Shown: piece by piece, positions 2 through 40,770 of the stretch
Layout: each line of letters begins with the position of its first letter
Position numbering within the stretch: position 1 is the stretch's first letter
Notes under the pieces: model-generated
What the model was told of the DNA's origin: nothing
Databases searched by the model: none
What the model saw: only the letters and a program-made list of their open reading frames with translations
From: Rhizaria sp. SCN 62-66
Taxonomy: Eukaryota
Direction: 5' to 3'
NCBI GenBank assembly: GCA_001724265.1
Contig: MEDY01000281.1
Coordinates: 1-40,816 of the forward strand
DNA length: 40,816 nt
Translations under genes and position numbers: made by a program

Positions 2-1801
2 AGCGGCGCCGCGGCCAACAGCGCCGCGCGCCCCGCAACCGCCGCCGCCGTCGCTGCGGGTCCGGGCTCCGGCCGGGCTGCGCGCGGATCCGTCTTTGGC
101 GGCCAGGGCGGCGTCCCTGGCGTGGCCGCCGCTGCGGGCGGCATCGGCCGCGCAAGCACTGCAAGCACGAGCCGCAGCGCACGCGCCGCCGCAGCCTCTG
201 CCACCGCCACCGCCGCCGCCTCTGCCGCGGCTGCCGCAGCCGCCTCTGCCTCCGCCGCCGCCGCGAGCGCCCCCGCCGCTGGCAGCGCCTCTGCTGCGGA
301 AGCCCGCCTGCTCCGCATGCTCAGCGCCGGCCGCGCCCCCCGCTCCACCGGCTCAGGCGCTGGCGCGAGGTCTAGCGCGAGCTCTGGTGCGAGTGCGCGC
401 GACGGCGGCGGCGGCGGCGGCGCGGCGTGGTCGCTACGCGCCGAGGCGGGCGTGACGGCCGTCGCGCACTGGCTCTCGCCCTGCGGCGGCCACCTGCTCG
501 CGCTCGGGCACGTCGACGGCGCGGTTACCATCCTCTGCGCGCCCGCCGCCGCCGCCGCAGCGTCGGCTGCCGACTGGAGCGCGGGCGCGCCGAGGGCGGG
601 GGCGCTGCGCGCGCTGCGGCCTGCGGCGCGGCTGGCGCCACACTGCAGCGCTGTCACGGCGCTCGCGTGGCTCGACGCCGGCAGTGGCGGCGTTCTCGGC
701 GGCGGCAGCGACAGCGGCGGCGGCGGTGCGGGGCCGTTGCAGGGCCTGGTGCTGGCCTCACTCTCCACCGCCGCCGCCGCTGCCGGCGGCCCCGGCGCAC
801 GCCTCAGCGGCGGCGGCGAGAGCGGCGCCACGCTCGCCCTGCACCGCTCCGCCCTCACGGCAGCGGCGGACACCGGCGCTAGCCAGCCTGTGCTTGCGCC
901 GCGCGCCGCCGGCCCTTCGCTGGCGTGCGCAGCCGCGGCGTGGCGCGCGCTGGCGCTGCTGCAGCTGCCGGGCTCCGCACCCGCGCTCGCCGCGCCCGCC
1001 GCCGTGCCCGTCGCCGCCCCCTCCTCCGCGGCCGCTGTCTCTGCCTCGGCCTTCGCTTTCGCCGCCGCAGCCGCTGCGGCGGCCCGCGTGCCCGCACCGC
1101 CCCTGCTCATCGCCTCGTACCACCCCTTCGTCCCCGCCCCGTCCGCTTACAGTGGCCGCAGCAGCGGTGGGCCGCTGCGCGTTCTGTTGGCGGTCAACGC
1201 CGCGACGGGGCGCGTGCGCGGTCAGCTGGCCCCTCTGCGCGCGCCCCTGCTCGCGCTCGCGCCCGCGGCCGCCGGGGCCGCCGTCGTCGCCGTCGACGCG
1301 GACGCTGCTGCCGCCACCGATGCGGACACGGGCGCTGAGGCAGCTGGTGCTGGCGCCGAGGTTGCGGTGGGCTGCGTGGCCGCGTCGCCGCCCGTGGAAG
1401 GCTCGGCAGCCTTCGCGCTCACGCTCTCCCACTCGCGCGGGGCGATGCGCGGCGCCGCGGTCGCTGCCGCGGCGGCCGCCACCGCCGCCGCGGAGGCCGC
1501 GGCCGAGGAGGAGGCCGCCGCGCGCGCCGGCCTGCTGCGGCGGCCCGGCACGGGCGGGATGCAGTTCACCCAGTCGTTCGCGCTCGTGCGCGCGCAGCCG
1601 CGGGCGCCGGCGCACACGCACGCACACGCCGCGGGCGCCACGGCGGCGCCCGGCTGGCTGCTGCCGGGCATGCGCGCGCGCCTCGGCCTGCCCGCCGTCG
1701 CGGGCGCGGGCGGCACGTTCACTGGGGCGCCCGCGCCGCCGGCGCACCTGGCCGCGCTGTTGGCGGCGTCGCGCCCGTCGACGAAGAGTACCTCCATGTG
1801 A
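2..1801 (+). CDS. WD40-repeat protein, 5'-partial, Ala/Gly-expanded; possibly Cdc20/Fizzy-like
   Basis: The frame is open from base 2 to TGA at 1799-1801, after which GC drops sharply. WD40-like segments: VTAVAHWLSPCGGHLLALGHVDGAVTIL, RLAPHCSAVTALAWLD, GRVRGQLAPLRAPLLALAP. The motif order loosely resembles Cdc20/Cdh1 (inference). AT|GTGAGC at 1798 could alternatively be a splice donor. Confidence 0.65.
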   Translation, partial: SGAAANSAARPATAAAVAAGPGSGRAARGSVFGGQGGVPGVAAAAGGIGRASTASTSRSARAAAASATATAAASAAAAAAASASAAAASAPAAGSASAAEARLLRMLSAGRAPRSTGSGAGARSSASSGASARDGGGGGGAAWSLRAEAGVTAVAHWLSPCGGHLLALGHVDGAVTILCAPAAAAAASAADWSAGAPRAGALRALRPAARLAPHCSAVTALAWLDAGSGGVLGGGSDSGGGGAGPLQGLVLASLSTAAAAAGGPGARLSGGGESGATLALHRSALTAAADTGASQPVLAPRAAGPSLACAAAAWRALALLQLPGSAPALAAPAAVPVAAPSSAAAVSASAFAFAAAAAAAARVPAPPLLIASYHPFVPAPSAYSGRSSGGPLRVLLAVNAATGRVRGQLAPLRAPLLALAPAAAGAAVVAVDADAAAATDADTGAEAAGAGAEVAVGCVAASPPVEGSAAFALTLSHSRGAMRGAAVAAAAAATAAAEAAAEEEAAARAGLLRRPGTGGMQFTQSFALVRAQPRAPAHTHAHAAGATAAPGWLLPGMRARLGLPAVAGAGGTFTGAPAPPAHLAALLAASRPSTKSTSM

Positions 1802-2914: not shown

Positions 2915-5900
2915 TTAGAACGCAGAGCCGCGCGCGATGGCAACCATGGTCGCGTCGCTGGGCACGCCCGTAAAGGCGGGCACCACGAGCGGCGGCTCAA
3001 CTCCGCTGTGCACCGGCGGCGGCAGCGTGCGGCGCGGTGCGTTAGCGTCGCTCTCCGCGGGCGCCATGTGCGCTGGGTCAACGCTCGGCGTCACGTACTC
3101 TGTCACACGCTCAGTCGCCGCGCTACCCGCGCTGCCGCTGGCGCTGTCAGGGCTACCGCTGCTGCCGCTGATGCCAGCGCCTGCGTTAGTACCGCTGGTG
3201 CCCGTGGCGGTGCTCGTGCCGCCAGCAGTGACGCCGCCAGCGCTGACGTTTGCGCTGGCGCCGCTGCTCGCCGCGCCCGCTCGCGGCGGGCCTGCGCGCG
3301 GCACGCTGCTGACCGGCGCGACGGGCGCGGGCGGCGGCATAAACCGCGTTGACGGTGCCGAGCTCATGATGGGCGCCGCTAGCGCTGCGGGCGCGCGCGC
3401 CGACACGGGGAGGTTCGTCGTGGAGGGCGGCGGCGGCATGTGCGGGTCCGGCGCGGCCTCTACGGCGCGCACAATTGCGGGCGCAGGCCGCGGCGCTGGC
3501 ACTGGCGCGGGCGGCGCCGCAGCCGGTGGCGGGCGCGGCACGCGGCCCGGTGTGCGCGTCGGCGCCGCTACCGTCGGCGCTGCGGGCGCAGGGGCAGTCA
3601 CGACGGGCGAAAACGCGGGCGTAGGCGTCGGCGTCGGCATAGGCGTCGGCGTTGGCATGTTTGCAGGCGCAGGCATAGATACAGGCGCAGGCGTGCTCGT
3701 GACGGGCGCTGGCGGAGAAGGAGGCACGCGCGCGGACGCAGGAGCGGTCACGGGTCTGAACGGCGGCACCGCGGCGCGCGGTTGCGCCCGCGACGGCTCG
3801 GTCACAGCGCCGACCGGCCCAAGCCCTTCGTCCGCGGCAGGCGGCGGCACAAAAGCCGTGAGGTCAACCGGTGGCACGGCGACGGGGGGCACCAGCGGCG
3901 TTGTCGCACGCGGGTACCGCGTCACCTCGGTCTCGGCCGGGTGCGGCGTCAAGTGCGGGTTGCGACGGTCGCGCTCACGCGCGGCACGCTCACGCGCGGC
4001 ACGCTCACGCTCAGCACGCTCACGTTCAGCACGCTCACGCTCAGCACGCTCACGTGCTGCGCGTTCACGCTCCAGGCGTTCACGCTCCAGGCGTTCGCGC
4101 TCATTGCGCTCACGCTCATTGCGCTCACGCTCACTGCGCTCACGCTCCGCAAGTTCGCGCTCTGCGCGCTCACGGTTGTTTCTCTCGCGTTCGACGCGTT
4201 CACGCTCAGAGTTTTCACGCTCAATGCGCTCACGCTCGGCGGCTTCGCGCTCGGCGGCTTCGCGGTCAGCGCGCTCGCGCTCAATGCGGTCGCGCTCGGC
4301 GCGTGCGCGTTCAGCGCGTTCACGTTCGCGCACGCGGTTGCGCTCACGCTCGCGATTGGCAGCCACGGCAGCTGCAGTTGCACGGGCCTCTGCCTCCGCC
4401 TCTGCAGCAGCAGCGGCGGCAGCCGCCTCAGCAGCAGCGCGCTCGCGCTCAATGCGCTCACGCTCAATGCGCTCACGCTCGCGCCCTAGTTGGCGCTCAC
4501 GCTCTAGTTGGCGCTCACGCTCTAGTTGGCGCTCACGCTCAGCGCGCGCGACACCGGCCGCACGCTCCCGCTCCCGCTCACGTTCGACAGCAGCAGCTGA
4601 GGCGGCGCGCACTCGCTCCCGCTCACGCTCCCGCTCAAGTGCGCGCTCGCGCTCTGCATGCGCCACGCGCTCCTCGCGGGCGCGCTCGGCAGCAGCAGCC
4701 GCAGCAACACGCTCGCGTTCTGCGCGCGCGACGCGCTCGTTGCGCTCGCTCTCGGCTGCGGCGGCCGCAGCTCGTTCACGCTCAACACGCTCGTTTTCTA
4801 TACGCTCATTCTCGATACGTTCACGCTCAAGGCGTTCGCGCTCAATACGCTCGCGCTCGCGCTGTGCACGCGCTGCTCGTTCCGCGCGCTCCCTTTCGGC
4901 GGCAGCGGCGGCTTCGCTACCGACGACGACGCCACTAGAGGCCGCAGTTGCCTCAGCGATGCTGGCAAACGCGGCGGCGCGGGCAGTGGCGGCAGCCTCA
5001 CGGCGTTCGCCAGCGGCCGCAGTGTTGCCCTCGCCGTAGCGCGCGCCCGCGCGGACGGCGTTACGACGCGCAGCGCGCTCAACCTCGGCGGCCGTCGCCG
5101 CGGCCGCGGACTCTCTCGCGCGCCGCTCGTTGCGTTCTCGCAAAAACCGCTCGCGCTCTGCCGCAGCGGCGCGGTCACGGTCCAGAGCCGCCGCGCGCTC
5201 TGCCGCAGCGCGGTTGGCGGCGGCGCGCTCTGCCGCGGCGGCGCGCTCTGAGGCCGCGCGCGCGGCGGCAGCACGGTCAGCCGCCGCGACGCGCTCTGCG
5301 GCGGCGCGAGTGGCGGCCTCGGCGCGCGCGGCTGCGACGGCGTGGCTCTCACGCAGCGCGCGATCGCGGGCAGCGCGCTCACGCTCGGCCCGCTCGCGCT
5401 CAGCGCGCTCACGCGCAAGACGATCGCGCTCGCGAGCAGCGTTCTCGCGTGCGACGCGCTCGCGCTCACTGCGCTCAAGCTCTAAGCGCTCGCGCTCCAG
5501 ACGCTGACGCTCAACACGTTCGCGCTCAGCGCTCTCGCGACTAGCGCGCTCGCGCTCGGCACGTTCGCGCTCAGCGCGTTCACGCTCATGGACAGCACGC
5601 TCACTACGTTCACGCTCAATGCGCTCCCGCTCACCGCGCTCGTTCTCGGCGCGTTCACGCTCTGCCCGCTCGTGCTCAGCACGCTCGCGGTTAGCGCGAT
5701 CACGATTAGCACGCTCGCGAGCAGCGCGCTCACGCTCCAGACCGCCGCGCTCGCGAAGCTCGCGTGCTGCGTTTTCGTTATCTCCATTAGCGGGGTCGCC
5801 CTCAGCGCGTTCAGCCTCCGCGCGGACGCGGGCATTGTGCTCGTGCAAGGCACGCGCACGCTCGACGCGATCGCTTCCGCCGCGTGCGCGGGCGCTGCGC

Positions 5901-8900
5901 TCGAGGAGCACACCCTCTCGCCCAGCCGCCGCACTGCGTCTGCGCTCCCGCACCCGCTCACGTTCGCGCGACAGGCGCTCCGCATCCAGCTCTTGCTCGC
6001 GGCGCGCGCCAGGCACGTGCTCCGCAACAGCGGGCCCCGGCACAGGCGCAGCCGCCGCTGAGCGCGGGTGGCGGGACCGCGCGCGGGGCACAGGCGTGGC
6101 TGCCGCCACAGGAGCAGTCTAGTGACCCAGATTGGTTACAGCAGCTGTGGCAGGAGCAGCAGGCGCAGCCGGCGAAAGAGCCGCGGCATTCGCGTTCGCG
6201 TTTGCTTCTGCGCGCTCGCGCATGCGGCGCGCGCCGATCGCTCGATACTCTGCGAGGAGCTCGCGATGACGGCGGTCCGCGCGCTCGCGCAACCGCCGCA
6301 TACGCTCTCGCTCGCCTCTGCGTTCGCTGTTGTCGCTCTCAGGGCCGCTGTCGGCGATCTCACGGTCACGGTTGCTGCGTTCACTGTCACTCAGCTCGCG
6401 CTCGCGCGCACGCGCCCTGACGGCCGCGCGGCGCGCCCGCAGCAAGCGCTCGCGCACCCGCTCCCGCTCCCGCTCTGGCTGCCGCCCGCGCTCCGTCGCA
6501 GCGCTGCGGGCGCTGCGGCGCACTGAGCCTACGGCGTCGGCGGCGGGGCGGGCGGGTGCGGCACCGCGGGCGCCAGCGCGGCTGCTCGGGCCAGATTCTG
6601 TAACCGCGTCAGTGTCGCTGCCAGGTGCAGCAGCGCGCCTGCGCCGGGCCGCGCTGTTGGCGCCGCGCAGTTCGCCACTGCCGCTGCGCTCGCGGCTGCG
6701 GCTACGCCCGCGGCTGGCGCCATTACTCCGGCCGATACGCGCGCTTGAATCTGTGCTTTCGCTATCTGAGGCCGCAGGTGTGCGGCGGCGACGACGGCGG
6801 CGACGGCGCCGGACCACTCCCGGATTTTCAGTTGGCGTCGAAGCTGCGTTACCTGCGGCTGGAGTGGCATTGGGGTTTGCAGCTGTTGCTACAAGAGCAG
6901 CGCTGTCTGTCGCGGCGTTAGACTCTGCTGACGCGGGAGCGCGGCGACGGCGACGACGCCGGCGCCGGCGAGTCGCGGTGTTGGCTCCGGCATTGGCCCT
7001 TGCGCTGTCGCCAGTGACGTCGACGTCTGCGTTGCTGCGGTTGTTAGTGCGAGCGCGAGTCCGCGTGCGCGCGCGAGTGCGACCCGGGGGCTGCCGCGTG
7101 TCCGCTGTTGTTGCCGCTGCTGCTGTTGGGGCAGCAACAGGAGCAGTGGCAGCAGGAGCATAGTGCGGCACGTAAGCTGGCCGCGCGCGGTAAAACACGG
7201 AAGACGCAAACGAGGGATCGTAGTCGTACCCGAAGTTGTGTCCGTAAGCGCCGTTGCCGCCATACTGAAACAGCGACATGGAGCGCGCGCGGTGGCGCGG
7301 TGCTGAGTTACTATCCTGCGACTGCTGCTGCTGCTGTTGCTGCGGCTGTTGAGACTGGAGCTGGGACTGTTGCTGCGGGTGCTGTCGCGCCTACCGCCAC
7401 GGCGGCTGGGCCTGGGACTGCGGCAGCTGTGAGTGCCCCTGCTGCGCCCGGAGCTGAGACTGCGAATGCTGCGATTGCTGTAACTGAGACTGGGACTGGA
7501 GCTGAGACTGAGACTGGGACTGGAGCTGCTGCGACGGGGCCTGGAGCTGCTGCGACTCGGCCCGCGACTGCGCATGCAGCTGAGAGAGGTCGTTGTAGCG
7601 ACCGCCGACACTGGAGTAAGCAAGACTGACGTCGCCGCTGGTGTCGTCATGCTCGCTGTCCTCGCGGTCACGACTGTGCTCATCGCCATCCTCGTAGTCA
7701 TCGTCGGCGTACTCGGAGTCATCGAGTGCATTGTGGCTGTGGCTGCCGCCATCCTCGTTGCGGTGGGAGTCCTCGTCGCCGTCCTCGTCATCGTCCTCGT
7801 TCTCGTCCTCGTTGTCAGACTCGTCGCCGCCGCGCTCGTGCTCACGGCCGTCTTCGCGCGCGCGACCAACGCCGCTGCTGCTGCGCCGGTGACCGGCGCG
7901 GTTGTCCTCAGTGTCGGCAAGGCTGCCTTCGTCCTCGTTAGCTTGGTCGCCGTGCAAATTGTCGTGGAAGCCACGGTTTACGCTGCGGCGGCCACTGTTC
8001 GCGCTGCCGTTTTCGTTGTTAGCTCCGGTCGTGAGTCCGTGGTGCCAGCGGTGCGCGTGCGCGCTGCCCGGGCCCGCGCGCATGCTGCTGCTACCGCGAG
8101 TGTTTGTGTTTTCGGCATGCGCAGCGGTAGGTGACGTGGATCGAGCGTTATCAGCATGGGTCTCAGCATGACTGGTGGCGCTGTTGTCAATCTCGGGCTC
8201 AGAGCCTTCGTCGCTGCCCTCGTCGTCGCCGTTTTCGTCAGAGCTGCTGCTGCTGCTGCTGCTACTGCTGCTTTCGTCTTCGTCATCGTCGCTCGCGGCG
8301 ACATTGTCTTCGCCGTCCGCCTCAGCGCTTGCGTCAGCGCCAGCGGCTACCTCCTTGTCTTCGTCTCCAGCCCCAGTCTCGACTGTGCTGGCTGCTGCAG
8401 TTGAGCTCAAGCCAGAGCTCGAAGTCTGACTATCGGCGAGCGTTTGAGTCGCAACAGCAGTCCCAGTTGCCACCTCAACCTCTGGCTGTCCGCTGGCTGC
8501 GGCAACTGTCGTCGCCGCAGTCTGCGCTCTACCCGGCGCCACCGCAGCAGCGGCCGCCTTGTCGTCCCTGTCGGCGACCTTGTCCTTGCCATCTTCGCTG
8601 TTCACACCGCGCGCACCAGATGCAGCAACCGCAGCGGCTGCGGAAATGCTCATGCTGGGAGCAGACTGAGACTGCGAGGCTGCCGCGGTCTCGTGAGTGT
8701 TGGTATTCTCGGCGGGAGCGCCGGCGGAAGTGGTAGCAGCGGCGATGCCGGCGGTGCCACTTGAAGTTGAAGGGGCAGAGTCGAAGAACCCACCAGAGTG
8801 GCGGCCGCGCAAGCGCGCGCTCTCGTAGAGGAATTGGAGCGAGCGCATAGTGCGGATAGGCATTGACAGTCGGGTTGAGAGGCCGAATAGCGGCGAAGCC

Positions 8901-8947
8901 GCCGTCGCGAAGCCCAGCAGGGCCAGCACAGCTACGGCAAACCGCAT
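2915..8947 (-). CDS. ~2,010-aa putative secreted low-complexity protein (signal peptide; acidic, Gln-rich, poly-Arg, ER-rich helical and Pro/Thr/Ala-rich regions); 2 internal TAG read as sense
   Basis: ORFs 7391..8947, 6119..7279 and 2915..6109 share one frame and the gaps are open except for TAG at 7391-7393 and 6119-6121. It starts ATG MRFAVAVLALLGFATAA and ends TAA at 2915-2917 (or TGA at 2867-2869 if TAA were also sense). Confidence 0.8.
3963..5760 (-). repeat. Coding tandem repeats (~15-nt ERxER units; GAGCGC/GAGCGT hexamers) encoding Glu/Arg/Ala-rich helix or coiled coil
   Basis: Recurrent gcgctcacgctc units on the + strand. The protein reads ERERAERERAERERIERE. Confidence 0.85.
4486..4539 (-). 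repeat. Perfect 18-nt x3 tandem repeat (QLERER unit)
   Basis: ctagttggcgctcacgct occurs at 4486, 4504 and 4522. Confidence 0.9.
6119..6121 (-). other. In-frame TAG, putative sense codon
   Basis: AAT CTG GGT CAC TAG ACT GCT CCT GTG; the same frame continues for >1,000 codons. A 21-nt GTAACC...CACTAG intron is a formal alternative. Confidence 0.65.
7391..7393 (-). other. In-frame TAG, putative Gln
   Basis: Context QSQAQPPWR*ARQHPQQQSQLQSQQPQQQQQQQ, inside a continuous Gln-rich tract. Confidence 0.8.
8897..8947 (-). other. Predicted N-terminal signal peptide
   Basis: MR followed by the hydrophobic core FAVAVLALLGF and small residues ATAA at the likely cleavage site. Confidence 0.75.
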
Positions 8948-9825
8948 GCTGATGCAAAGGCTTTTGCTGAAACTACGGGGTATGTTGTAGGAAGAAGAAA
9001 TTAAATAAGAACTTACTGTAAAAACTTAGAAATACCTGAAAAAAATGCTCTTACCGCAGAATGAATGATATGTGCAGAGAAGAGATCAACATAAAAATTG
9101 TTTTCAAGCCCTGATTTCCGCTGATTTCGGTCCACGTCACCGGAATTCCAGGTCACTTTAGCTGCTCACAGTCGTTCACAGTCACTGCCACAAACAAGCT
9201 TTCAAGTTGATAAAGGCATAGTAATAGGTATGTTGACGGCTTTATCGATCTATACTATTGTGCTCTGAAAAATGAGCAGTCAACTTTCTCAGCAACCTAA
9301 TCGACTTGAACAAAGTCAACGCCATACAGCTCCCAGGCTCTTATTCGAGCATTTATAGGTTGTATTTTCAGTTCTACAAAAATTGTATGGAAATCGGAAT
9401 TCACATGTGAACATTGTTTAAATCGAGGTCCAAAACAAAAAAATTTCTAAAATTCACGTGTTCACAACAGGCGGACTACGCATGAGATCTAGCCATTGTT
9501 TCCGAGCGTCTGCAGCGGACTTGTATTTTGCTTGCCAACATCAGGAAACGACTCTATCGTCTTCTAAGTTCGCTCAGAGAGACGGTCGAATTTGATGAGC
9601 CAGACCGATCCTTGACATAAGCAAGCGCAACTGTTCGCTTTCAGATGAGTCTCAAAGCACTGCAGCATGTAACCAAGAACTAGCTTTGTCAATATAACCA
9701 GGTGTATGTATTATTGAAGTAGATCAACATATTATATGGCCATTTTAGAGTTGTGATTCGTGATAATAATACAGCCTTGAAAGAAATAGTATTTAAATAA
9801 GTTTACACGTCACTGCTCTTGACCT

Positions 9826-12660
9826 TTAACTGGTGAGCTCCTGTGAGCAGATTGCAAGGGCAAGCTTTGCACGCAGAACCTCTTTGCTCGAGTAACAGGG
9901 GAGCTCCACGAGCATAAAGCAAGTGTGAGATTGCGGCAGCCGTTCGTCGTTGCGCTCCCACTCTGTCAAGTGAACGCGCATGAATTGCTGCACGTTTCCG
10001 CCACCAGAGCCGCCGCTGCTGGCGTCGAGCCCGGCGGGCAGCTTGGCCATGCCCCACACGAACTGCAGAAACTGCCCGCGCTCCTTGGGCCCCCACTCGG
10101 CGAGCACCTCCCATAGTGCCTCGGCAACGGCGGCCTCGCGCGCGCTCAGTGGCGGCCCGCGCGGCGCAGAGGCGCCCACTGCCGCGCCCGCCTCGCACCG
10201 CGCGCCGTCGGCGCCCACCACCACGGTGAACGCGCGCAGCCGCGCCGCACTGTAGTCTTCGGCACCCGCAAGCCAGCGCCAGGCGGCTGCGGCGCCGCGC
10301 AGCCCCAGCGCCCACCCGCCTGTCAGCGCCGCGCCGCTGGCGCTAGACACCGAGACCGCGCCGGCCGCGGGGTCCACGCCGGCGCGCTGGTCGCAAGCGC
10401 CAGCGCCGTTGGCGTGCGACGCAGCGCCCGCGCGGCTGCTGTCGGCGGCCGCGGGGCCCAGAGCGGCGGCGCCCGCGGCTGCGGCGGGCGCGGTGACCGC
10501 AGCGGACCCCGCGGCAGCGCCGAGCCCGCCGCGGCCGAGCGCGGTCACAAAGGGCGGCCGCCGCAGGTGCGCCGAGGCTGCAGCGGCTCCAGGTGTGGCC
10601 GGGAGAGACCACAACATGCCTTCGCGCACCGCTGCTGCTAGCGCGCCGCCGAACGCGCCGCCCGTGGCTGCCGCAGCCCCCGAGGCCGCCGCGCTGCCCG
10701 CGCGCCTGCCGAGGCCTAGCGCGGCTAGAGATCGTAGCACGGGCGCGTTGCACAGCCGCGCGTGCGCACCTGGGACCACCGCAGCTGGGCCCGCGGCCGG
10801 CGCAGCGGCAACATCGGCGTTGGCCCAGCCGCCCGCGCCGGTAAGTGCGGTCACGGCGGCCGCGGCAAAGGCTGAGCGAGTCGCGAATGTCACGCGCACG
10901 AAGCGTGCTGCGGGGAACAGAGGCGCGCGCCCTGCCGTTGCGCCGCTGTTTCCGGCCGAAGATGCTCCCGCGCCACTGGCAAGGCCGAGAGGGTTGCGCG
11001 CAGCGGTTGCCGCGTCTGCGGCCAGCACACTGTCGGGTAATGCAACTGTGGCCGCTATGTCTGTAACTGCGGCTGCAAAAGCACGCGGCGCGAGCGGACG
11101 GCCCTGACCGTCGGCAAACAGCAACGCACGCGCCGCTGTTACGTCGGCCGCCGCCAGCCGCTGCAGCGCGCCAAGGGGCGCTGTGAATGCCGCGGGCAGC
11201 CGGACGGGAGCGGCGGCACTGTCATCGTTGCCGTCTTCACTGTCGTCGTTGTATCCGTCGTTTGCAATTATGGTGCTATTGTAGCAGTGCGCTAAAGGCT
11301 GAGGAGAGCCATCGGTAAAGCCTGCATTGGATCTACTGAAGAGCTCGCGGATGTCGCTTTCGCTGCTGCGTCCATGCATAGCGTCACTGTCTTCAGCTTC
11401 GTTATTGTTATCTTGAGGCGCTAGAGTGACAGACGATGACGGTAAATCATGCGGAGGCTTCACGTGCCATTCACTACTTTGAGGTTGCACTTTGTCCACG
11501 AAACGTAGATCTTGTTCAAGTACTCCGTCGCGGTCAAAGACGTCAATCCACACCGCTTCGCGCGCACATAGCGCAGACACACACTCTGCCACCGCGTTAG
11601 TTGCGGTGGAGTGGCTTGTCGGAAGAGTGACACAGACCGAGGCGAGGCCGCGGCGCGCTGCCACAGGTAGCCCGGCCACCGCGAGCACCTCACTGTCGTC
11701 CTCGCCGCCGCCGCTGCCGCTGCCCACAGCGCTGTCTGCGGCACTGCTATTTGCTCCAGCATTGTGGTTGCCGCCAGTGTGCGTGCCAAGCCCCGCGCCG
11801 CGGCCCTCGCCGCCAGCGTCGCCGACTACAGCGGCCCACGCCGCAGAAGCAAGTCGCGGGTCGACCGCAGCGCCGGCGCGCGCGGCCAGCGCCAGCAGCA
11901 TGCCGGCCGTCGCGGCCAAGTGGGCCTCGCGCGGCGCGCCTGCCAGCGCGTTGAACGCCAGCGTGTCGCGGTGCGCGCCTTCGCCGTGCGTCGCGTTCGG
12001 CACGGCCACCAGCAGCGGCGGACTTAGCGGCTGCGCGCCCGCGACTTCGGTGCCTGCGGTTAGTGCTCCGGGGCCGCGCGCAAAGCTGGGAACAAAGCCT
12101 GAAACAGCATTGCTTATCGACGTATTGCGACTTGTGCTGTTGCTCATGTTTGTGCTGCCCGCGCTCGTTGTGGCGGCTAAGCGCAGCACACGGCGTGCCT
12201 CGGAGCGCGGCAACCCAATAGCGCTTGCCACAGCTTCTGCAGCTTCCTCAATTTCAAAGCTGCTGCTGTAACCAGTGTAACTTGCATGGCGCAAAGTGCG
12301 GCGCAAAAGAGCTAATTCAACGCTGGAGTTACCGCCATAGACATGCGCCAGCGCGCCACATAGCGCACTTGCGCCAAGGCTCCTGCTCTCTCCGCCGCCG
12401 CCCGCGCCTACACCCTGCGCAGCGCCGCCAGTGCTGCCGCTGCTGCTGCCGCCGTGCGCGGACGCAACAGCCGCTGCAACAGAGGCTGTGAGCACAAGTT
12501 GTGAAACGGTCGCCTCAAGGCCCCACCGGAACGGGCCGGGAAATCCCGCGGCGCCGGCGTTTGTAGCGCCCGTAAGCGTAACGCGCAGCGCATACGCGGC
12601 AGGAACTGCGCGCAGAGAATGGCAGCGCACGTCGCGCAAGCGCCGCGCTAGCTGAACAAG
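9826..12660 (-). other. HECT domain (HERC-type), insertion-expanded; catalytic Cys codon at 9919-9921
   Basis: N-lobe motifs LRVTLTG..AAGFPGPFR, LLVAVPNATHGEGAHRDTLAFN and GMLLALAARAGAAVDPRLASAAWAAVVG. C-lobe LWEVLAEWGPKERGQFLQFVWGMAKLP...RLPQSHTCFMLVELPCYSSKEVLRAKLALAI. Confidence 0.92.
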
Positions 12661-15600
12661 CGCATTGTCTGGCACTGGGCTTGCGCCGATCATTGGAGCG
12701 CTCAAGTCGGCGTTCTGACCGTGACCGTGAGCGAGAGCATGGTCGTGGTTGGCGTGGACGCGTCGCGTTGCCAGAACATCATCCGCAATATCGCCGTGGT
12801 TCATTGCGTTGCTGCTCCCGCCAAGGTTGCTGCTAACATGACGACGGCGCCGCGTGGCTTCATCGCTGCTCGTGCTGTAGTGAAACGCATTAGCGTCCTC
12901 GGTATCAACATCTGCCTCAATGTCATCGTCAGCTTCGGCCTCATTATCAGCGCCAAACTCGAGCTGCGCTTCCGCAGCCGCCGCTTCCGCCTCTGCCTCA
13001 GCCTCGCCCCACAGCTCAGAGTCAGCGTCGGTCATTACGGCGTGAGTTGTCCTGCGTGCTCCTGAATCAGGTTCAGACTCGGAGTCACTGCCACTTGCGC
13101 TGGCTCTGGCAGAAGCACCAGCAAGATTGCTCGCACGGCGGCCGCTGCTTGCGCTAGCGCCGCGCTCATCACTCTCACTAGCAGTGTTTTCGTCAGCGTT
13201 GTCACCAAGAGATGCGTTCGCACTGCTCATGTCTGCGCTGCTATCAAACTCAATGGCGGCTTGACTAGCGCCGGGTACAGGGAGACTTCCTTGCTGCAGC
13301 GGCAGCTCTAACCGTACCGCGGGCGAGGCGTCACAATGCACGCGCGCGGTGGCCATCATCGCCAGCTGCGCCAGTTGCGAGCGCGCAGCGGGAGACGGTA
13401 GCAGCAGTCCTGCGAGTGTGCGCCCGCCCTCTTCTTCCTCCTCCTCGTCTTCGCCAGCAGCAGCGGCCAGACTGTGGTCCTCGCCGTTGTTGTTGTCCTC
13501 TTCGTTGTGCTTACTGTCGTCGTTGTCCTTGGTATCGCTGTCATCGCCCCGGCTTAACTTATCGTCAGCCATCTTGGTGCTCACGGTTACAGCATTGTCG
13601 CTGCGCTGCAACCCGGCACCAACAGCACGTGCGTCGGCCACACTAGCTAAGGCTGCACTCCGCTGCGCGCGCGTTGGCGCCTGTGGCAGTGCAGCCAACA
13701 GCACCGACGCCGGGCCCAGCTCTAACAGACCCATTACGTCGGCTTCAGTCTGCTTGCGCGCGCGGTTAATGCCGCCTGCGCCGTCAGCGCCGTGTTTGCT
13801 AGCACTAGGGTCTATCTCGAATACGCGGCTTACCTTTGGTTCCGCTGCTGCCGCGTCCAGCGTTACAGCCATGGCCAGTTCCAGCATTTCTCCGCTGCCA
13901 TCTGACGCCAGCGTGACCGCAGCGTCTGCAAGCGCGGCTGCGTCAACGCCATGCCAACTGCCCGGTGGGCCAAAGCTGGCGCGGCGCGGCGGTGCAGTAG
14001 CGCGTAATAGTGTCTGCAGTAGCAGGCCCACGCGTAGGAGCACGCGTTGCGAGTCTGCGCTAAGTCGCGCTAATAGCGGCAGTGTGGCGTGCTGTGCAGC
14101 TACAGCAATAGCGAGGCTTTCAACCTGTGCATGCGCACGCGCGCGCGCCCGGTCATTTGCAGCTGCTGCAGACGACTCAGCCAGCGCAAACTCAGTCGCC
14201 GCATCTGCAAGGCCGCTACTTGCCGCAGCACCGGCCCCAGCCTCGTCCTCTTCTTCAGCAATCGCGGCGCCAGTCAAGATCAAACTTGCGGCTGCGTCAA
14301 CCAGCACCGGACTAACAGCAGTAATAGCAGGGTTGGTATTGTTCGGTACAATGAAGGAGTCTATGGGTGGCAGGATGGGGCGCAACGCGGAAGTCAGAAG
14401 GTGTAACGCAGTGGCCTCTTCTTTAGCGGTCTTAGTCGCAGCGAGCGCGCGCAAGCAGCTGGCCCAGATCCACGCAACGGCAACGGCAGCGCGCGCGTGC
14501 GCCCTGGCGCGCGCAGCGCGGCCAAGGCCCTGTGCGGCTGCAGCGCCCGCGCGCACCGCTGCGGCGCGCAGCATTGTCTCTGCGCGCTCAACGCGCGAGA
14601 ACAGCTGCGAATCCTTGTCGCGCTTTGCGTGCAGGCGCACTCCACGCGAAGCTGCGTGCCCGCGCGCGCAGGCAGGCAGCATTGTGCAGTGCAGCACGTG
14701 CGCATTATCCGCGAAGGCGTCCGTTTGCCGCGCGCATTGCCACAACAAAGCGCCACGCGCCTCGGCAGACATCGCGGCTGGCAGTAACTCGCGGATTGCA
14801 ATAGCGACAACTGCAGCGTCAACAACTGGCGCTGCGGCCTCTGCCAAAGCTAGGGCAGCGGCGCGGCTGCTGTTGTTGTGAACAATTGCAGTACCCGCGG
14901 CTTGCGCAATGCCGGTGAGCTACAGAATAGACATCACTGATGTGTAGGACAGCGCACTCATACTTACAGTCGCCGCATTTACGCTATGGGGTGCCGCGGC
15001 AGACACATGTAGCGCGGGCGCGAGAGTTTCGACTGTTGCCTTTGCCGTTGCTGAAGCAACTCGCAGAGCATGCGCAAGCGCAACCGGCACAATAATCAAT
15101 GAACGTGCAGCCGCAGCGTCAAGCATAAGATATAGAGAACGCTGCGCAGCGTCTGCGGCTGCAAACGCACCCTGTTGGTGTAGGTGTCGCGCCCATTGCA
15201 ATGCGCGCGCAAGCCTTTTCAGCCCCAGGCCGTTGCTGGTCCCATCGTCGCTGTCTAACTCGGAGTCCGATTCCGACTGTGGCATTGACTTGAAGTGTCG
15301 CGAGAGCCACTCAGAGGGCAGGTCAGTGACTGCAACGGACACCTTGTTGCTGTGCCGCGCATTGCCCGCGCGCAGTGTCAGGACGCCACACCACGCCTCT
15401 GCGCTAACGCTACAGACCGGCAACGCTAGTTTGTCGCTGTTGCTCATGCCAGCGCCAGCAGTGACGCTAGGCCGCGGTAGCACGCCCCAGCGCTAGGCGC
15501 CAACGCGGATTGCGATGCGCAGCACGCGCTCAATTGCAACAACGGCCTCAAAGCGGCGCGCACTGGCGTCGGAGCGCGCGGCGACGTAGGGAAACAGTAC

Positions 15601-18600
15601 GCCGCCGCTCTCAACCAGCGGAGGTCCTAGCGGCCCAGTCCCCGCCGCAGTGCCAGCGGGGCCCTCGTGGCCGCTGCCGCCGCTGCCGCGGTGCGGAGCC
15701 GACGTCGCAGTGGACACGGCCTTTGCAGCGCTGCGCGCGGTCTCTGCTTGCAGCAGTGCGGCAGACTCGGCGTAGGCCAAGTCGCGCAACGGCAGAAGTG
15801 CCGTTGACACTGGCACTGTTGCGCCCACGATTCCGCCCACGGCAAGCCGAGACGCGGTTATCCAGTCCTGCTCCTCAATGTCGTTGCCGTCATGGCTGTT
15901 GCGGCGGACGGAGCCGCCAGGCTGCGCTTTGCTTGGACCAGGCAGCACACAACAGGGGCCATAGTACTCACCGGCGGCGGCCAGCTCTGCGCCAAGCCAG
16001 GCGATTGTCGGCGCAGCGACAAGCCGCGCCGGCAGCGCTGTGAGCGCAAGCGCGGCCTCAGTCACTACGCTGAGCAGCAGCGTGCGCAGCGGGGCAGCGC
16101 TCTCGCCCAGTGCGAGCGGCGCACGGCCCTCCGCGCCCGTTTCTCGCGCGAAGCACTGTGTCGCGTTTTGCTGTTCTGCGCTTGACGTCTCCATTACTGC
16201 AGCAGTAAGCCCCGCAGCCTTGGCTACTGCGGCGCCCAGCGGCGGTAGCGCGGTGTTATGGGCGGCAGATGCGGCTGTGGCAGACTGGGCGGCGCTTATG
16301 GCCTCAGCACCGGCGCGCAGCGCGTGCGTGGCCCTGGCGGCTATTGTGGCCAGACCAGGCAGACACGCAAGTTGCGAGCGCTCATTTGTTGTGGAGAATA
16401 AATCAGAAGTGCGTTCGCGTGGCTCTTCCTCAGCCGTTTTTGAGGCAGCTGTTGCTTTTGTGACCATAAGTGTCCGGTCAACGCCAAAGCCCTCGCTGCC
16501 AACCGCGTACGTGGCTGCTGCTGCAGCTGCCGCCGCCTGGGCAATTGTGGTGAGTGCACTCTGCGCGCGTTCGCAGTCAGCCGCAGCAAGCGAGTGCCGC
16601 GTCATTGCGCGCGCAAGGACGCGCACAAGGAACAGCAGCGCGTGCGCGGAGCTAGGCGGCGCCGCGGTGACCGTCACTAGCGCGCGGACCCAAGCGGGCA
16701 CAAGCGACACACCTTGCCCCGCAGTTGCCGCACCGCTGCGGACAACAGCAACACTTTCCGTGCGCACTTGTTGCAGCTGCTGTTGCCTATGGGCGTGCGT
16801 CTGCGCGTGTGGAGAAGATAGCAGTGTGGGAAGACCCAGCGCAAGCCCGACAGCTGTGGAGTCCGTTGCGGATGTTGTAGGCTGTGCAGAGCGGGCGACA
16901 GTGGGTGGTGCTGCGACCGCATGCAGCGACAGAGAAACCTCCGTGTGTGTGCCTTCGCGCGCTGCGGTTGCGCCCGGCACAACACAGCCCGACACTGTAG
17001 TCAAGCCGTCCTGAGCATTAACTAACTCACTGTTTCCACGGGTTAACGCATTGCGTACAGCGGATGCAACGCCACTCTCCAGCTCTTGCGTAGCGCCAGA
17101 GTCGAGATGCGCAGTGGCTGCGCGTACTGCTGTTGCCGATAGCGGTGGTGGCACAATTAGCGGCGCCTCATTCACGTCTGTTGCCGTAATGCGAACGTAA
17201 CAGGGGTTTGGAACTAGCAGGCAGCCAGGCTCTGGCGTGCCGTCAGCTGCAACAACGCGCGTGCCACCAAGCCGTTTTCCCACATGTGCCCAGCGTCCAG
17301 GGCGTTCTTGTGCGCGTTCAACCCCCTGGATAGAGCGGTAGCTGGTGTTATACGCGCACACGCGCCAGGCGTGCGTCGGCGCAAGCGTCGCAAGCGAGCA
17401 CGGCGCGTGACGGCCGCCCGCATAGTGACCGCCGTCCCACAGCCCTTGCGCTGCCTCCGCGCCGGCTGCGTTGCTATCAACACCGCCGTCAGTCCGTGAG
17501 TCAGTGACAATCACCGCGGCGGCTGCGGCTGCAGCGGCGGCGTCCGCCGGCATGCCGCAGAGGTCTTCGGCGGCGTCTGATGGCGCAAGCACAAGCGAGT
17601 GGAGCGGTACGCGCCCAGCGCGGTCAGCGCTCACAGTTACCACAGCGGGGACTGTCAGGCCGGAGGGGCGAAACCCTAACACAAGTGCATCAGTGCTCAC
17701 GAGCAAAGTGTCGGCAGAGTCGGATTCGCTCCTGTTCACAGTATAGGGCGGCTTGTAAAGGCGGACCAGGCAGGAGCGCTCGGAGTGCAGCAGTGTGCTT
17801 ATGGTCACCTCTGGCCGCGTCGCAGCCGTCATGACCGCGGTCGCCAGCCGCTCTGCCTCTACTGCCAGCGCAGCCATTCCAGCGCTGCACTCGGCAATGT
17901 TGACGTTGACAGGAACAGAAGCAGACTTATTGTGAGTGCCCGCAGAGCGCACAGTGCGTGCTGACGACTGCAGCAGCAGGCAGCCAACAACGGTCTTCAC
18001 GGCGGCTGCGGTTGACGTTGCGGCGTCGCCACCAGGACAGCCGAACGCAGCAGTGCGGCCCCCAACGGGTTCGTCGTCGTCTGCAGCGGGCGTAAGCGCG
18101 GCGGCCACAGCGCCAATAGAAGCGGGCGCTATTAGCGCAGTCGACAATGACTTGTTTAGCATTGCTAGGCCTGATGGAGTTGACACTGGCAGCCGTGGCA
18201 GTGCTACAACAACGCGCGCTCTACCAGCATCAGTACTGTCACTTACTGAGCGCAATGCAGTTGCTGTAACAGCAGCGTCTGTGCCCGCAGTAGGGGCAAG
18301 TGAGGAGTCAACAAGCCGGGCAATGGGCACCCTTGTTGCTAGTGCGAGAGCTAGCCGAAGAGGCGGCAGCAGCGGAGCAACGAACTGACTTCCGTTGGAC
18401 GTTGCAGCAGTTGCAGTGCGTATAGTGCCTAGTGTGAGTCGGCGGAACATGCTACGCTGCGCGCGTGTGACGTCAAGGCCGCACGCGTGCTCATTACGGC
18501 CGCCGCACGACAAAAGCGTCCGCAGCAGTGCGCGGCGAGCTGCTGCTGCCCCTGCGTGCAACCCACTGGCCAGCGCGCGAGCTGCAGAAAGCAGCGCAAT

Positions 18601-21600
18601 TTCACGGCTGTTGCTGTCGTCAATGTCGTAGTCAATGCTATCGTCGCCGTTGTCGTTCCGCAGCGTGATTGCGAGCGTCACAGTCTCTGTAACGGGCGCG
18701 CGCAGCGGTGCAGTAGCGGGGATTAGCGGCAGTGCCAACGGAGCCAAATCCTCAAGCCGCAGCCACACATATGACGAAGCCCACGCGTCTGCGCCGGCCC
18801 CAGCAGCCGCGGCCTCAGCGGCGTCTGCGTCTGCGCCAGCCGCAGCGGCGGGCGCCAGTCCGCGGAAAGACAGCGTGTGCGGGTTCGAGCCTAATAATCC
18901 CTCTGAGGCGTCGCCCAGGGGCGGGAAATGCACCAACACGGCGCCCACCAGCGGAGGCAACGGGACACGCATGAAGGTTTCAGTAGCATTTCCACTTGCC
19001 GCTTCCATGGCAGCAGCTGCAGCGTTGTTGCGGTTTTGCTCAAGCTCAATGCCGTCAGATCGCGCAGGAAAAGAAGCGGAGCCGCGGGAAGTAGCAGCGG
19101 GCAGCGGAGGCAGACGCAGGTGTAAACCTAGCGTCCCCGCCGTTGGCGTAATGTTTGCACTCGTCATCGCGCTTGCGCGTTCAGAGCCGTGGCGCAACAA
19201 ACCTGGAAGCGGCGCAGGCACAAACATGCCGCTTTGAGTGGCGCTTAGCGTGTCACCGTGACTTTCGGTGCCATTTCCTTGGTACGCGTAAGAGTCCGCT
19301 TGAGAAACGTCGCCTTGGCTGCTCTCAACAGCGTTAAGGCGGCTTAACATCCCGGCGCCAGTGTCGCTGTCCACCATACTAGTCGCGCTGCGCACGCTGC
19401 CGCACGACACTGAGCGCGCACCAGAACCAGAACCGGACTGAGAGCGACTGCGTTGCATTGTCGCTGCCGCGCTAATGTTATTATTCTCCCGACTGGGGGA
19501 AGTACTGCGTTGGGCGGATGATCTTACTGTCACCGCGACAAAGGCCGTATTTCCTGCATTGTTGTCCTCATCGCCATCGGCATTGTTGTCACCGTTGGCA
19601 GCGCGCATTGCAGCCGCTGCAGCCGCTGCCTCAGCTGCGGCCACTGCACCGGCACCACAGGGCGCACATGCGACGATAGTACCACACCGCTGCCTTGCGG
19701 CCAGAGTTGGCAGCGTCTCCCGCATTGCTGCTGCGGCTGCCGGCGTAAGCGCGACCGTCCGGCCGACCAGTAGCGCTGCCGCTGCGCCTGCTGCCGCGCG
19801 CGCCGCGGCGCCCACGGCCCGCACTAGCGCGCGCGGCATTGCGCTCTCGCCCACAGCGGCCGCCGCAGCGGCTGCAGCGTCCACAGCGGGGCTTGAGCTG
19901 GGCACACGGACTGAGATTGAGAGCGAGGCCGCAGCGAGACCCCAGAGGTCGGCGCGGCGCGCGGCGCGGGCGGCGGCGCCGGGATCCGGCGGCTGCGGGA
20001 AAGGGCCCGCCTCGCTGGGGCCCTGAGTGAGCCCTGCCTCGATGCTGACATCAGTGGGGAAGCACGACACGTAGTATGCGAGGCATTGGGGCAGCGAGCG
20101 AGGCAAGCAGGGGCCAAGTGCGGGTGCAATGCGCTCGGTGACGGTCACGGTTGGGCTTGCGCCCACAGGCATTGCGCGATTGGTGCTAGCCACGGGCATT
20201 GTGTTATAAGCGGACAACGCGGCAGTGCTAAGTTTTGGTGCATTGCTATTATCGTTTGTGTTTGCCGTTCCGTCGTTGGTAGGGTCTGTGATGAGGATGT
20301 GTGTGTTTACAGTCAGTCCCGCGTTGGTAGAAATCTCGCTGGCTACCACATCAATCAACGTACGCGGAGGCCGCGGTAACGCGCGCTTGGCATTGCTGCT
20401 CGTGTCGGTGTCAATGCCGCTACAGTCAAGACCCCAGCGCCAGTCATGTGCGCGTGAGGCAAGACCCGCTGCTGCAAGCCCAGCGGCGGCCGTGGGTAAT
20501 GGCATAGCAATGGTGACGGCAGCTGCAGTACCGGGAAACACCAGTCCTGCGCGTGGTGCGTCTTGGGATGCGTTGCTAGAAACGTGGTCTTCAAGCAACG
20601 CGTCGACAAATTTAGCTGCACTGGGGGCGCTGTGACAGAGCGGCAAGGGACTTGTACGAACCGAGCTCTGACTGTTTGCGTCGAGCAAAGACAACATGTC
20701 GCAGTCACCGGCCTCAATCCACCGCTGCAGTACTGCCGTGGCACGGGCACTCAGCGCGGCGCGCACAGCCTTCCACGCTTTAGTTTCAACCGAGGAAGCA
20801 ATTTCCTCTTGATTGTCAACACAGTCATCCGGGCCGCATTTGTTAGCAGTAGAGACGGCAAGCGCCGTGACCGCTAGCGCAAGCACAGAGCCAGGCTTTT
20901 GCACCCAAGCACTCGATTGCGAGCTTGCTGACGTCGACTTGCCTTTACTATTTGTAAGTAGCACTGGGGCCGAGTCAAGTGCAGTGACCGAAAGCGGTCC
21001 ATGACGTGGCGCCGGCGCAACAAACGCGAGCGGTACTACCCTGTATAGAAGAGCTGGCGCAGCCGCAGGCGTGCCCACCCATGGCGCACTGCTACTGCTG
21101 CACGGCTCAGCATTAGTGCTGCCGCCATCGCGCTCTTGGTGCTCCTCAGCAACGCCGGTATACATGCGTGACTGCGCGGCGACTGCTGGCTCGTCGCTAG
21201 CAATGGGCGCAACGCGCACGTGCGCAACGCTCTCGCGCCAGTCGATAAACTGCACGACGCCCGGCACTGCGCCGGCAGCAGGCGGCACCGTCACGGAAAC
21301 AAGGGAGCCTGCGCGCAGCGGCGGAGTAAAGGCCCCGATAACATCAAGTGCTGCAGCCGCTAGCGCAACGTTTTTTAGCGCACAGTCAGTCGATGTGGAG
21401 CCATTGTCATTAGGGTCAAGAGAGAGTGCGGAAAGGATTGACTCCACTGCTGCGGCGTGCCAGGCTAATGGGGTAGGTTGTGATAACACATGCGCGAATC
21501 CCGTTGCAGCCTCCTGTTTGCGGTTTCCGGGACTTACAGCGGCACACGCAAGCAGCGTCAGTGCTGGGTCACCGCGTTGTACTGTAACAAGTGCGCGCAT

Positions 21601-39078: not shown

Positions 39079-40143
39079 GTTATAGTGCCCGCAATAGCTC
39101 TAAGTTGGGGTTTGACGATACTCCTTGGTGAAGGAGCTGCACTCGCGAGAGCGACGAGGAAGTGATGAGCAACGGCAAGTGAGGGAGGGCAATGTTCAAG
39201 TGTGCATTGCGATAGAAACATCACAGTTTCAAGTTGGCTGTTTATATTATAACATACAGTTAAACCGTGCTGATACATATCTTACATTGATATCTATTTC
39301 AACGATATAAATATTGTGAGATGGTTCGTAAAAGAGACAGGCGGGGGAAGTCGCCTGTTGCGTTGAGTCTGTGCAACGTGTGACCGTGTTTTTAGGAACC
39401 AGTAAGCGCACCAACCTGCACTGCACCATTTGACTTGACCGATGCTCGCGAACTTGGTCGAAACGGCAGCGAGTACCTCGAAACAACGCGAACGTCGTTA
39501 ACGTTAAAGAAACGTCGCTTGATTTACCACCGACGTTTTGTTGCTTGCATATGTATTTGTGTTTGAAAAGGCGTTGGTCTTTCGTGTTTTCTGCAAGACA
39601 TTGTGCGAGCCGTCCCAATCACTGAATCTAGCACTTCGATCATCTGCTTCCAGCTAGGCCAGCGAGGTCAAACAAGCACCTATGGAGGCTCTACTAGCGT
39701 TTTCGAATAATAAGTCTAGCGATGTATACGCTCATCTTGTGTTTATGTGCTGCATGGGTTGGCTTTGCTGACTGAGTGAGCCCAGCGGCGGTGACGCGGT
39801 TCGCACACTCCGTTCTTCGCCCTTGCCGCGACACCACGCCTCGTGTCATATACCTTTTGCTACCAACAATAGCGCCTACCGCAGAGACAGACCAGGTCTA
39901 TTTCTACAACTTCCCAGCATTTTTTTGCTTACACTGTAAACTGCCGATTGCTCTATCATTTTGCGCATACTACACCAACCACAACGACTCGACGACGAAC
40001 AACGACTCTCACCACTCACTCACGTGCCACACCTTTGACTTCTCAATTCTCACCTTCTCACAAAAACCAACGTTTTATCAATACGCGGTTCTTGCTGCTC
40101 CCCCGCCTTCTGCGCGCGCGCTTTAGCTTTCGTTCCACGCCCG
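39079..40143. promoter_or_regulatory. Divergent intergenic region, probable shared promoter/5' UTR region
   Basis: About 1.06 kb of lower-GC DNA between the head-to-head HECT gene (-) and Aha1-domain gene (+). No specific element was identified. Confidence 0.45.
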
Positions 40144-40582
40144 ATGAGTTGCCCACAGTGCCGCGTTCCGAGTGACGAAGAGCACCTCGCCTCTGGCTGG
40201 CACAAGTTCAACATGCGCCTCACGGCCGAGGGCAAGATGCCCATCATGCTCGACAACTACCTCCGCTTTGAGAAGCCCAAGGAGGACGCCGCCGCCGCGG
40301 GCCTCGCCACGCCGGTCGGCGCCGCCGAGGGCGTCGCGACGTACTTGGAACTCAACAAGCGCAACGTCAACCAGTGGCACTGGGAGGAGACGGACCACAC
40401 GGAGTGGGCCAAGGCACGCATGAGCGAGCTCTTCGACGGGCTCGAGGTTGCGCTCGGCGACGGCGCCCCCAAGATCACGTTCACGGGCGTCACTGAGTTC
40501 GCTGGCGACGCTTTCACGCATATCCGCAAAGCCAAGTTCTCTGCCGGCTACGAGCTCTCGTTCGGGCTCGACTGGAAGGCCG
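40144..40582 (+). CDS. Exon of an Aha1-family Hsp90 ATPase activator N-domain protein with an N-terminal Rei1/ZNF622-like C2H2 finger; 3'-partial
   Basis: NVNQWHWEETDHTEWAKARMSELF...GDAFTHIRKAKFSAGYELSFGLDWK matches Aha1_N (NxNNWHW and RKxK motifs). Strong GC3 bias ends at the donor G|GTACGT. Confidence 0.85.
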
Positions 40583-40770
40583 GTACGTTGCGCTGTTTAT
40601 TTCGCCATATTATACTGCAACGTGTTTTTATGAACTTTTGTGTTGTGTTTTATTTGAGGCTTTGGCATTGCCAAATTATCGTAGCGCTTTGGCATTATGT
40701 AATATGAATAAGCTCTTCGCTCACTGCTTTCTTTCTTTGTCACTTTATTTCTTGTTGTCGCTTTGTGTGC

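Follow-up and report, generated by a model that had tools for sequence, protein, structure and literature searches.

The window analysed here is a stretch of 40,816 nucleotides, positions 1 to 40,816 of contig MEDY01000281.1 deposited under Rhizaria sp. SCN 62-66 (GCA_001724265.1), and most of its length is taken up by a single gene, gene C, which encodes a giant HECT E3 ligase. Two further genes, A and B, lie at lower coordinates, and the first exon of a fourth, gene D, lies on the other side. The subject of this work is the genetic code by which these genes are read, as TAG codons stand inside the otherwise open frames of genes B and C while TAA and TGA are met at the ends of genes. The window is eukaryotic nuclear DNA, given that the Aha1_N homology of gene D stops at the GTACGT donor of a spliceosomal intron and that contigs from a poly(A) RNA library cover the genes.

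Gene C, its internal TAG codons and its TAA end

The features of gene C that carry the argument are the following.

9829..39078, minus strand: gene C, giant HECT E3 ligase, intronless, 9,750 codons, with its ATG at 39076-39078 (open frame and domains)
39052..39054, minus strand: in-frame TAG, codon 9 of gene C (translation)
38494..38496, minus strand: in-frame TAG, codon 195 of gene C, in the context QAQW[TAG]REQ (translation)
38410-38754 and 22321-22680, minus strand: paralogous MBT/Tudor-like domains (...FDGW...), 16 kb apart in the same gene C
33247..33249, minus strand: in-frame TAG, codon 1944 of gene C (translation)
15493..15495, minus strand: in-frame TAG, codon 7862 of gene C, in the context GA[TAG]RWGV; kept in the contig of a divergent strain that covers 13022-15630 (run X5) and in contig L002 of another assembly collection
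14920..14922, minus strand: in-frame TAG, codon 8053 of gene C; kept in the same X5 strain contig (13022-15630) and in L002
9841..10134, minus strand: HECT C-lobe with the catalytic-cysteine motif SHTCF (PF00632, E = 2.2e-18)
9826..9828, minus strand: TAA, the terminator of gene C (translation and HECT homology)

Apart from TAG, the frame of gene C is open up to 39195, and the start given above is the first in-frame ATG after a TGA at 39196. Five TAG and no TAA or TGA were counted among its 9,750 codons; the other five frames across the same span hold 17-77 TAA, 37-101 TAG and 87-260 TGA each, and the open frame of gene C is far beyond chance. A sixth TAG at 39100 lies 5' of the ATG and is probably part of the 5' untranslated region. 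Gene callers that apply the standard code split gene C, the pieces including P0005 (5,896 residues), P0006 (175 residues) and P0003 (1,648 residues).

The end of gene C is where homology has most to say about a stop codon. Translation of the minus strand over 9700-12000 gives KLALAICSQELTS and then TAA at 9826-9828, the C-terminal readout being SKEVLRAKLALAICSQELTS / PCYSSKEVLRAKLALAICSQELTS. On the last 100 residues, the Pfam HECT profile (PF00632) scores with E = 2.2e-18 over positions 213-300 of 306, and this match stops four residues short of the TAA. In a phmmer comparison with solved HECT ligases, the catalytic HTCF of gene C is matched to the HTCF of HUWE1, and an 'AI' pair near the end (residue 143 in a query of 150) is aligned with HUWE1 4364/4374, E6AP 866/875 and HACE1 899/909. 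Seven residues follow this 'AI' in gene C versus 9-10 in HUWE1, E6AP and HACE1, which places the gene C TAA where HECT proteins end. Judged by this homology, UAA appears to act as a terminator at a fixed position. The sequence-only reading, an earlier account made from the letters of this DNA, had held that HECT domains end a few residues past their final helix and that the DNA turns AT-rich soon after the TAA; both statements are borne out, the content of guanine plus cytosine (GC) falling from 0.780 over 10001-11000 to 0.417 over 9001-10000. The first 30 nt past the TAA have about 40% GC by manual count, and ten AT-rich codons past it are followed by another in-frame TAA.

Only the C-lobe part of the HECT profile scores and the sequence upstream of it is Ala-rich; as far as can be judged from the profile, any HECT N-lobe in gene C would be too diverged or too interrupted to score. 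The two paralogous MBT/Tudor-like domains share 37% identity (E = 2e-16), and neither is recognised by Pfam. One Tudor_2-like Pfam match was obtained in gene C, and the remainder is mostly Ala-rich; the known-family matches in the window are confined to the HECT C-lobe, the Tudor-like domains and the Aha1_N exon of gene D. When residues 7350-8549 of gene C, which span two of the TAGs, were compared by phmmer with 1.84 billion protein representatives, all three matches were the window's own fragments. With the HECT region as query, a search for homologous proteins gave no match but the protein of the window itself, and a cluster look-up of the gene C protein pieces gave no variant members. Tryptophan is clustered along gene C: 17 of 115 residues have another Trp within two residues where about 5 are expected by chance, in motifs that comprise WRW (three times), WLW, WPW, WVW, WIW and WW (twice).

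Stop codons in genes A, B and C and the reading of UAG

Gene B supplies two more in-frame TAGs and a second TAA end, and gene A supplies a TGA end.

2915..8947, minus strand: gene B, 2,010 codons, ending in TAA at 2915-2917 (translation)
7391..7393, minus strand: in-frame TAG in gene B, in the context PPWR[TAG]ARQ; present in contig L001 of the other assembly collection
6119..6121, minus strand: in-frame TAG in gene B; present in L001 and kept, with no gap, in the contig of run X9 that covers 6085-6490
2..1801, plus strand: gene A, Ala-rich, its 5' end outside the window, ending in TGA at 1799-1801 (translation and codon model)

The frame of gene B holds two TAG and no other stop among 2,010 codons, and that of gene A holds no TAG, TAA or TGA among 599. 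The GC content of the gene A frame is highest at the third codon position (GC3), followed by the first and then the second (GC3 > GC1 > GC2), the frame has the best codon-model score in all three segments, and GC drops abruptly at the TGA. The TGA end that had been proposed for a 'WD40 gene' is thus borne out for gene A; the WD40 label itself was not confirmed.

Over the roughly 12,360 codons of genes A, B and C, in-frame TAG occurs seven times (0.57 per 1,000), and neither TAA nor TGA occurs. They end in TAA in two cases out of three and in TGA in the other; UAG is the terminator in none, in a sample of three only. Off frame, TAG accounts for 402 of 1,387 stops and the ratio TAA:TAG is about 0.8:1. 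Calculated from the first of these figures, the probability that seven random nonsense mutations would all be TAG is about 2e-4, and no frameshifts were seen.

Codon usage bears on how the lack of internal TAA is to be read. Gene C has 119 CAA and 172 CAG, with a GC3 of 0.61, and gene B has 12 CAA and 47 CAG; across two-fold pairs the A-ending share is 20-41%. Because A-ending codons are not rare, the contrast of no TAA with seven TAG is not simply GC bias. We regard the lack of internal TAA as suggestive, not decisive, evidence against a sense TAA. As a test of UGA sense, the lack of internal UGA has strong power, with 87-260 TGA in each off-frame of gene C.

We consider it probable that in this nuclear genome UAG is read as an amino acid and that UAA and UGA are kept as stops. 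Such a TAG-only code is like NCBI table 15 in form. The sequence-only reading had proposed that UAG and UAA are uncoupled here, and within the window this is supported by seven internal TAGs, by TAA and TGA that are never internal, and by gene ends in TAA and TGA. Internal TAA with TGA as the sole terminator, the pattern that it had set against its own proposal, was looked for in the genes of the window and was not seen.

The TAGs themselves recur outside the assembly from which the window is taken. Contigs L001 and L002 are 100% identical to it over 5372-13031 and 14212-20410 and cover four TAGs as well as the gene C TAA; contigs and window may share a source sample. Beyond these two contigs, both of which are short and lie inside the window, a scan of metagenome contigs found nothing, and a scan of genome contigs with P0003 likewise found nothing. 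The contigs of run X5 represent a strain about 0.5% divergent from the window. Its contig over 13022-15630 has 12 differences, all of them outside the TAGs at 14920 and 15493. Its contig over 8967-10027 has 11 differences, nine of them in the 859 nt past the TAA and two, both synonymous, in 199 coding nt, and the gene C TAA itself is unchanged. In gene C, 8 of the 14 codon changes listed are synonymous, against an expected share of 0.33 (P = 0.05); 65 more strain differences exist outside the listed set. The sequence 3' of the gene C TAGs is under constraint. At the TAG of gene B at 6119, a poly(A) RNA library (X9) yielded a contig over 6085-6490 that runs colinearly with the DNA, without gaps, and retains the TAG, which argues against editing or a mini-intron there.

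Several points weigh against a TAG-only code. The sample is small, with three gene ends and seven TAGs, and if UAA and UAG were synonymous, seven TAG and no TAA would be met with P ~0.046 (0.59^5 x 0.80^2, from CAA:CAG). An in-frame TGA stands 16 codons past the TAA of gene B, where the DNA has kept a moderately high GC content, so that the end of gene B by itself would not rule out read-through of TAA. Strain differences in gene B are nonsynonymous in 10 of the 11 listed, with no measurable constraint or purifying selection. The contigs from RNA libraries could be contaminating DNA. No homologue aligns at any TAG, so that the meaning and the translation of TAG are both reached indirectly; ARAGORN detected no tRNA gene in the window, and a comparison with Rfam was likewise negative.

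These points have to be set beside four other explanations. UAG could be partly reassigned, still terminating some genes and being efficiently read through in long, weakly constrained ones such as these by a near-cognate or weak suppressor tRNA, as an ambiguous intermediate. TAG is rare at the frequency given above, all seven copies stand in poorly conserved or low-complexity sequence, and the base after TAG is C in five of the seven; a stop codon followed by C is classically the weakest termination context. However, 46-51% of the CAG, CTG, TTG and TCG codons of gene C are also followed by C, and of the 538 TAGN in the window 283 are TAGC. A leaky context with C at +4 was therefore rejected, the share of C being no higher than the background of G-ending codons. 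Moreover, five successive read-throughs in a messenger RNA (mRNA) of 9,750 codons would take almost complete suppression, in effect a reassignment, and none of the three genes ends in TAG; we find partial reassignment improbable. A code in which both UAA and UAG are sense, as in ciliates, or in which UAA can act both as sense and as stop, as it does in Blastocrithidia or Condylostoma, with TAA ending genes only near the ends of mRNAs, strikes us as decidedly improbable. It draws on the only marginal significance of the missing internal TAA (P ~0.046) and on the fact that dual-meaning UAA is documented in two papers (PMC12153298, PMC4967479). Against it, neither an internal TAA nor an internal TGA occurs in about 12,360 codons even though A-ending codons make up 20-41%, and the off-frame ratio indicates that mutation supplies TAA freely.

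The remaining two explanations would leave the code as it is. The TAGs might be removed or changed before translation, as the ends (...TAG) of short in-frame introns that are spliced out or as targets of U-to-C RNA editing. The last two letters of TAG are indeed those of a 3' splice site (AG), introns exist in the organism (gene D), and an in-frame GTN lies 3-6 codons upstream of three of the seven TAGs (14920, 15493 and 6119). The other four lack an in-frame GTN within 12 codons upstream, the flanks of the TAGs are GC-rich and coding-like where the gene D intron is AT-rich, and the poly(A)-library contig at 6119 keeps its TAG without a gap; this explanation is barely credible. Alternatively, the TAGs might be true stops in pseudogenes or between separate back-to-back open reading frames, or else errors of assembly, and the splitting of gene C by standard-code callers speaks for such a view. 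The fragments nevertheless lie in one frame, without a spacer, frameshift or other stop between them, whereas true spacers in the window are ~0.9-1.1 kb long and AT-rich. TAG is the sole stop type (P ~2e-4), the identical sequence is found in another assembly, a divergent strain retains the TAGs, and the first of the supposed reading frames would be eight codons long. We regard pseudogenes, separate reading frames and assembly errors as most implausible, and as close to refuted.

Known UAG-only codes and the amino acid inserted

The remark in the sequence-only reading that a TAG-only change is the unusual class is one with which we agree, but the class is already published (PMC5304391, PMC11687900). 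In Iotanema spirale (Fornicata), UAG encodes Gln and UAA and UGA are stops (PMC5304391). The two cases are alike in that UAG is sense and scarce, no UAA or UGA occurs in frame, UGA also serves as a stop, and most genes end in UAA (104 of the 119 ends scored in Iotanema, two of three here). They differ in the breadth of the evidence, which comprises 204 codons in 126 genes in Iotanema versus seven codons in one window here, and also in that the residue is judged here from context only, that coding GC is ~60-80%, and that the DNA comes from wastewater and bioreactor metagenomes. Relatives of Iotanema keep the standard code (PMC9161772).

A second precedent is an uncultured sainouroid rhizarian, 'exLh', for which PMC5304391 gives UAG as Leu and UAA as a stop. 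It shares with the present case a TAG-only reassignment, an uncultured protist known only from sequence, and the retention of UAA as a stop; unlike there, Leu has no special support here (2.3 log units below Gln in the neighbour model described below, and 12 Leu around the TAGs versus 11.0 expected). Further cases in which UAG alone has changed are, according to PMC11687900, the green alga Scotinosphaera (Ser), Protocruzia (Gln) and several phyllopharyngean ciliates (Gln twice and Leu), all of them independent. These lineages resemble the present one in that UAG alone changed and UAA was kept as a stop, so that the class recurs. The ciliate and hexamitin code (NCBI table 6), in which UAA and UAG encode Gln and UGA is the sole stop, has a sense UAG in common with this one, and Gln is likewise the likeliest residue here; in contrast to table 6, TAA closes two of the three genes and is never internal, and the coupling of UAA with UAG is not seen. 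The 29-kb intronless gene, the GC-rich genome and the ~1-kb spacers found here are also unlike ciliate macronuclear DNA, which is AT-rich and gene-dense. We contend that this code is probably a further case of the documented TAG-only class. A literature search did not find a GC-rich wastewater eukaryote with sense UAG, which is not proof that none has been published.

Which amino acid is inserted was approached through the neighbourhood of the TAGs. Within 10 residues on either side, Gln was observed 17 times versus 4.1 expected (P = 0.0095) and Trp five times versus 1.2 expected (P = 0.0091), neither value being corrected for 20 residues, and Leu shows no enrichment. Read in this way, the contexts speak for Gln and Trp in about equal measure. 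A naive-Bayes model of neighbouring residues ranks Gln first, followed by Trp (-0.78 log units), Ser (-1.29), Pro (-1.33) and Leu (-2.31); in cross-validation it recovered 87% of true Gln sets and only 18% of true Trp sets. A second model, built on two features, was discarded as it was dominated by pseudocounts.

Three of the seven TAGs stand in clusters of Trp and Arg (QW[TAG]RE, PWR[TAG]A and GA[TAG]RWG), a pattern that was spotted post hoc. Gene C contains WRW three times and has Trp at 6 of 26 other positions of the form '?RW or WR?', and in gene B, which has only two Trp in 2,010 residues, one is found at a distance of two residues from a TAG. When the MBT/Tudor-like paralogues are aligned globally, a TAG falls opposite the second Trp of RWWEQ, in a tail alignment that is not significant alone (shuffle P = 0.84).

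On balance, Gln is our tentative first choice, an estimate helped by precedent in other lineages; Trp is a less likely candidate, and Leu, Glu, Ser or another residue would take the remainder. UGA is the codon usually captured by Trp, and we know of no nuclear genome with UAG as Trp and UGA as a stop. A code of that kind, with UGA kept as a stop and carried perhaps by a eukaryotic lineage without a sequenced relative, seems unlikely.

A mechanism for a UAG-only change can be sketched. A tRNA whose anticodon is CUA would pair with UAG and not with UAA, and its simplest origin would be the mutation of a tRNA-Gln(CUG) copy, while an eRF1 with weakened recognition of UAG would still release at UAA and UGA. 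As CUA reads UAG only and UUA would read both codons, capture of UAG alone would be easy on the tRNA side. The proposal of a tRNA(CUA) together with an altered eRF1 follows the argument in PMC5304391, and the mechanism predicted for Iotanema is likewise of this kind; the eRF1 of that organism carries T32G in its GTS motif, according to the same paper. The eRF1 gene does not lie in the window.

When UAA or UAG takes on a new meaning, the other almost always does so too, and very few nuclear lineages are exceptions to this coupling. Each new independent case tests whether eRF1 or tRNA wobble is the source of the coupling, and the present one would do so in a GC-rich genome, in which mutation favours TAG over TAA. 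The stretch 9400-13400 was found in 18 runs from 11 studies, comprising bioreactor, wastewater, activated-sludge and fuel-cell metagenomes, and 6 of the 18 runs contain at least half of its sampled words, the whole window being present in the DNA runs X1-X3; run contigs with a small share of the stretch, and its uncovered parts, were not taken as evidence of habitat or expression. This recurrence implies that there is enough material to recover the tRNA(CUA), the eRF1 and the 18S rRNA. Unless this code is taken into account, eukaryotic bins from wastewater-type samples will carry wrong annotations, given that standard-code callers split the genes.

Neighbouring genes and intergenic sequence

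Gene D, of which one exon lies in the window, contributes two features.

40144..40582, plus strand: gene D exon 1, zinc-finger-like at its start and covering the first half of Aha1_N (Pfam)
40583-40588, plus strand: GTACGT intron donor of gene D (end of homology, G/GTACGT junction, AT-rich turn)

The Aha1_N match has a Pfam E value of 1.6e-10 and covers positions 1-63 of the 136 in the profile. The zinc-finger-like start (CxxCRVP...EHLASGWHKFN) joined to Aha1_N is an architecture common to one metagenomic protein, P0004 (326 residues), at 35-36% identity. Similarity to P0004 ends at residue 146 of gene D (P0004 residue 179), exactly at the G/GTACGT junction. In the ESM Atlas, gene D had no usable match.

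The product of gene A is possibly a beta-propeller. Its weak ESM look-alikes (0.91-0.92) are WD40 or beta-propeller proteins, and its WD40 identity was not confirmed: a comparison of gene A with Pfam gave nothing at E <= 5, and a homologue search gave no match. A single-sequence AlphaFold model was set aside, with a mean predicted local distance difference test score (pLDDT) of 37. Gene B has a start resembling a signal peptide (MRFAVAVLALLGFATAAS) and is almost all of low complexity, being made up of acidic, poly-Q/S and Pro-rich sequence and long Glu/Arg 'RERE' repeats.

A GC-rich stretch of ~73 nt at 2320-2392, in the spacer between genes A and B, was found in many contigs of all four runs compared. 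In X5 it occurs in 14 + 3 contigs at a depth of 150, versus ~8 in its flanks. The first 29 nt had no exact match in genome contigs, and Pfam, Rfam and plasmid searches of the stretch gave no match. Position 2349 is polymorphic among the contigs that share the stretch, and these contigs differ on both sides of it; the stretch resembles a small conserved element or a dispersed repeat. Near the other end of the window, a (TG)n microsatellite runs from ~40779 to the last base.

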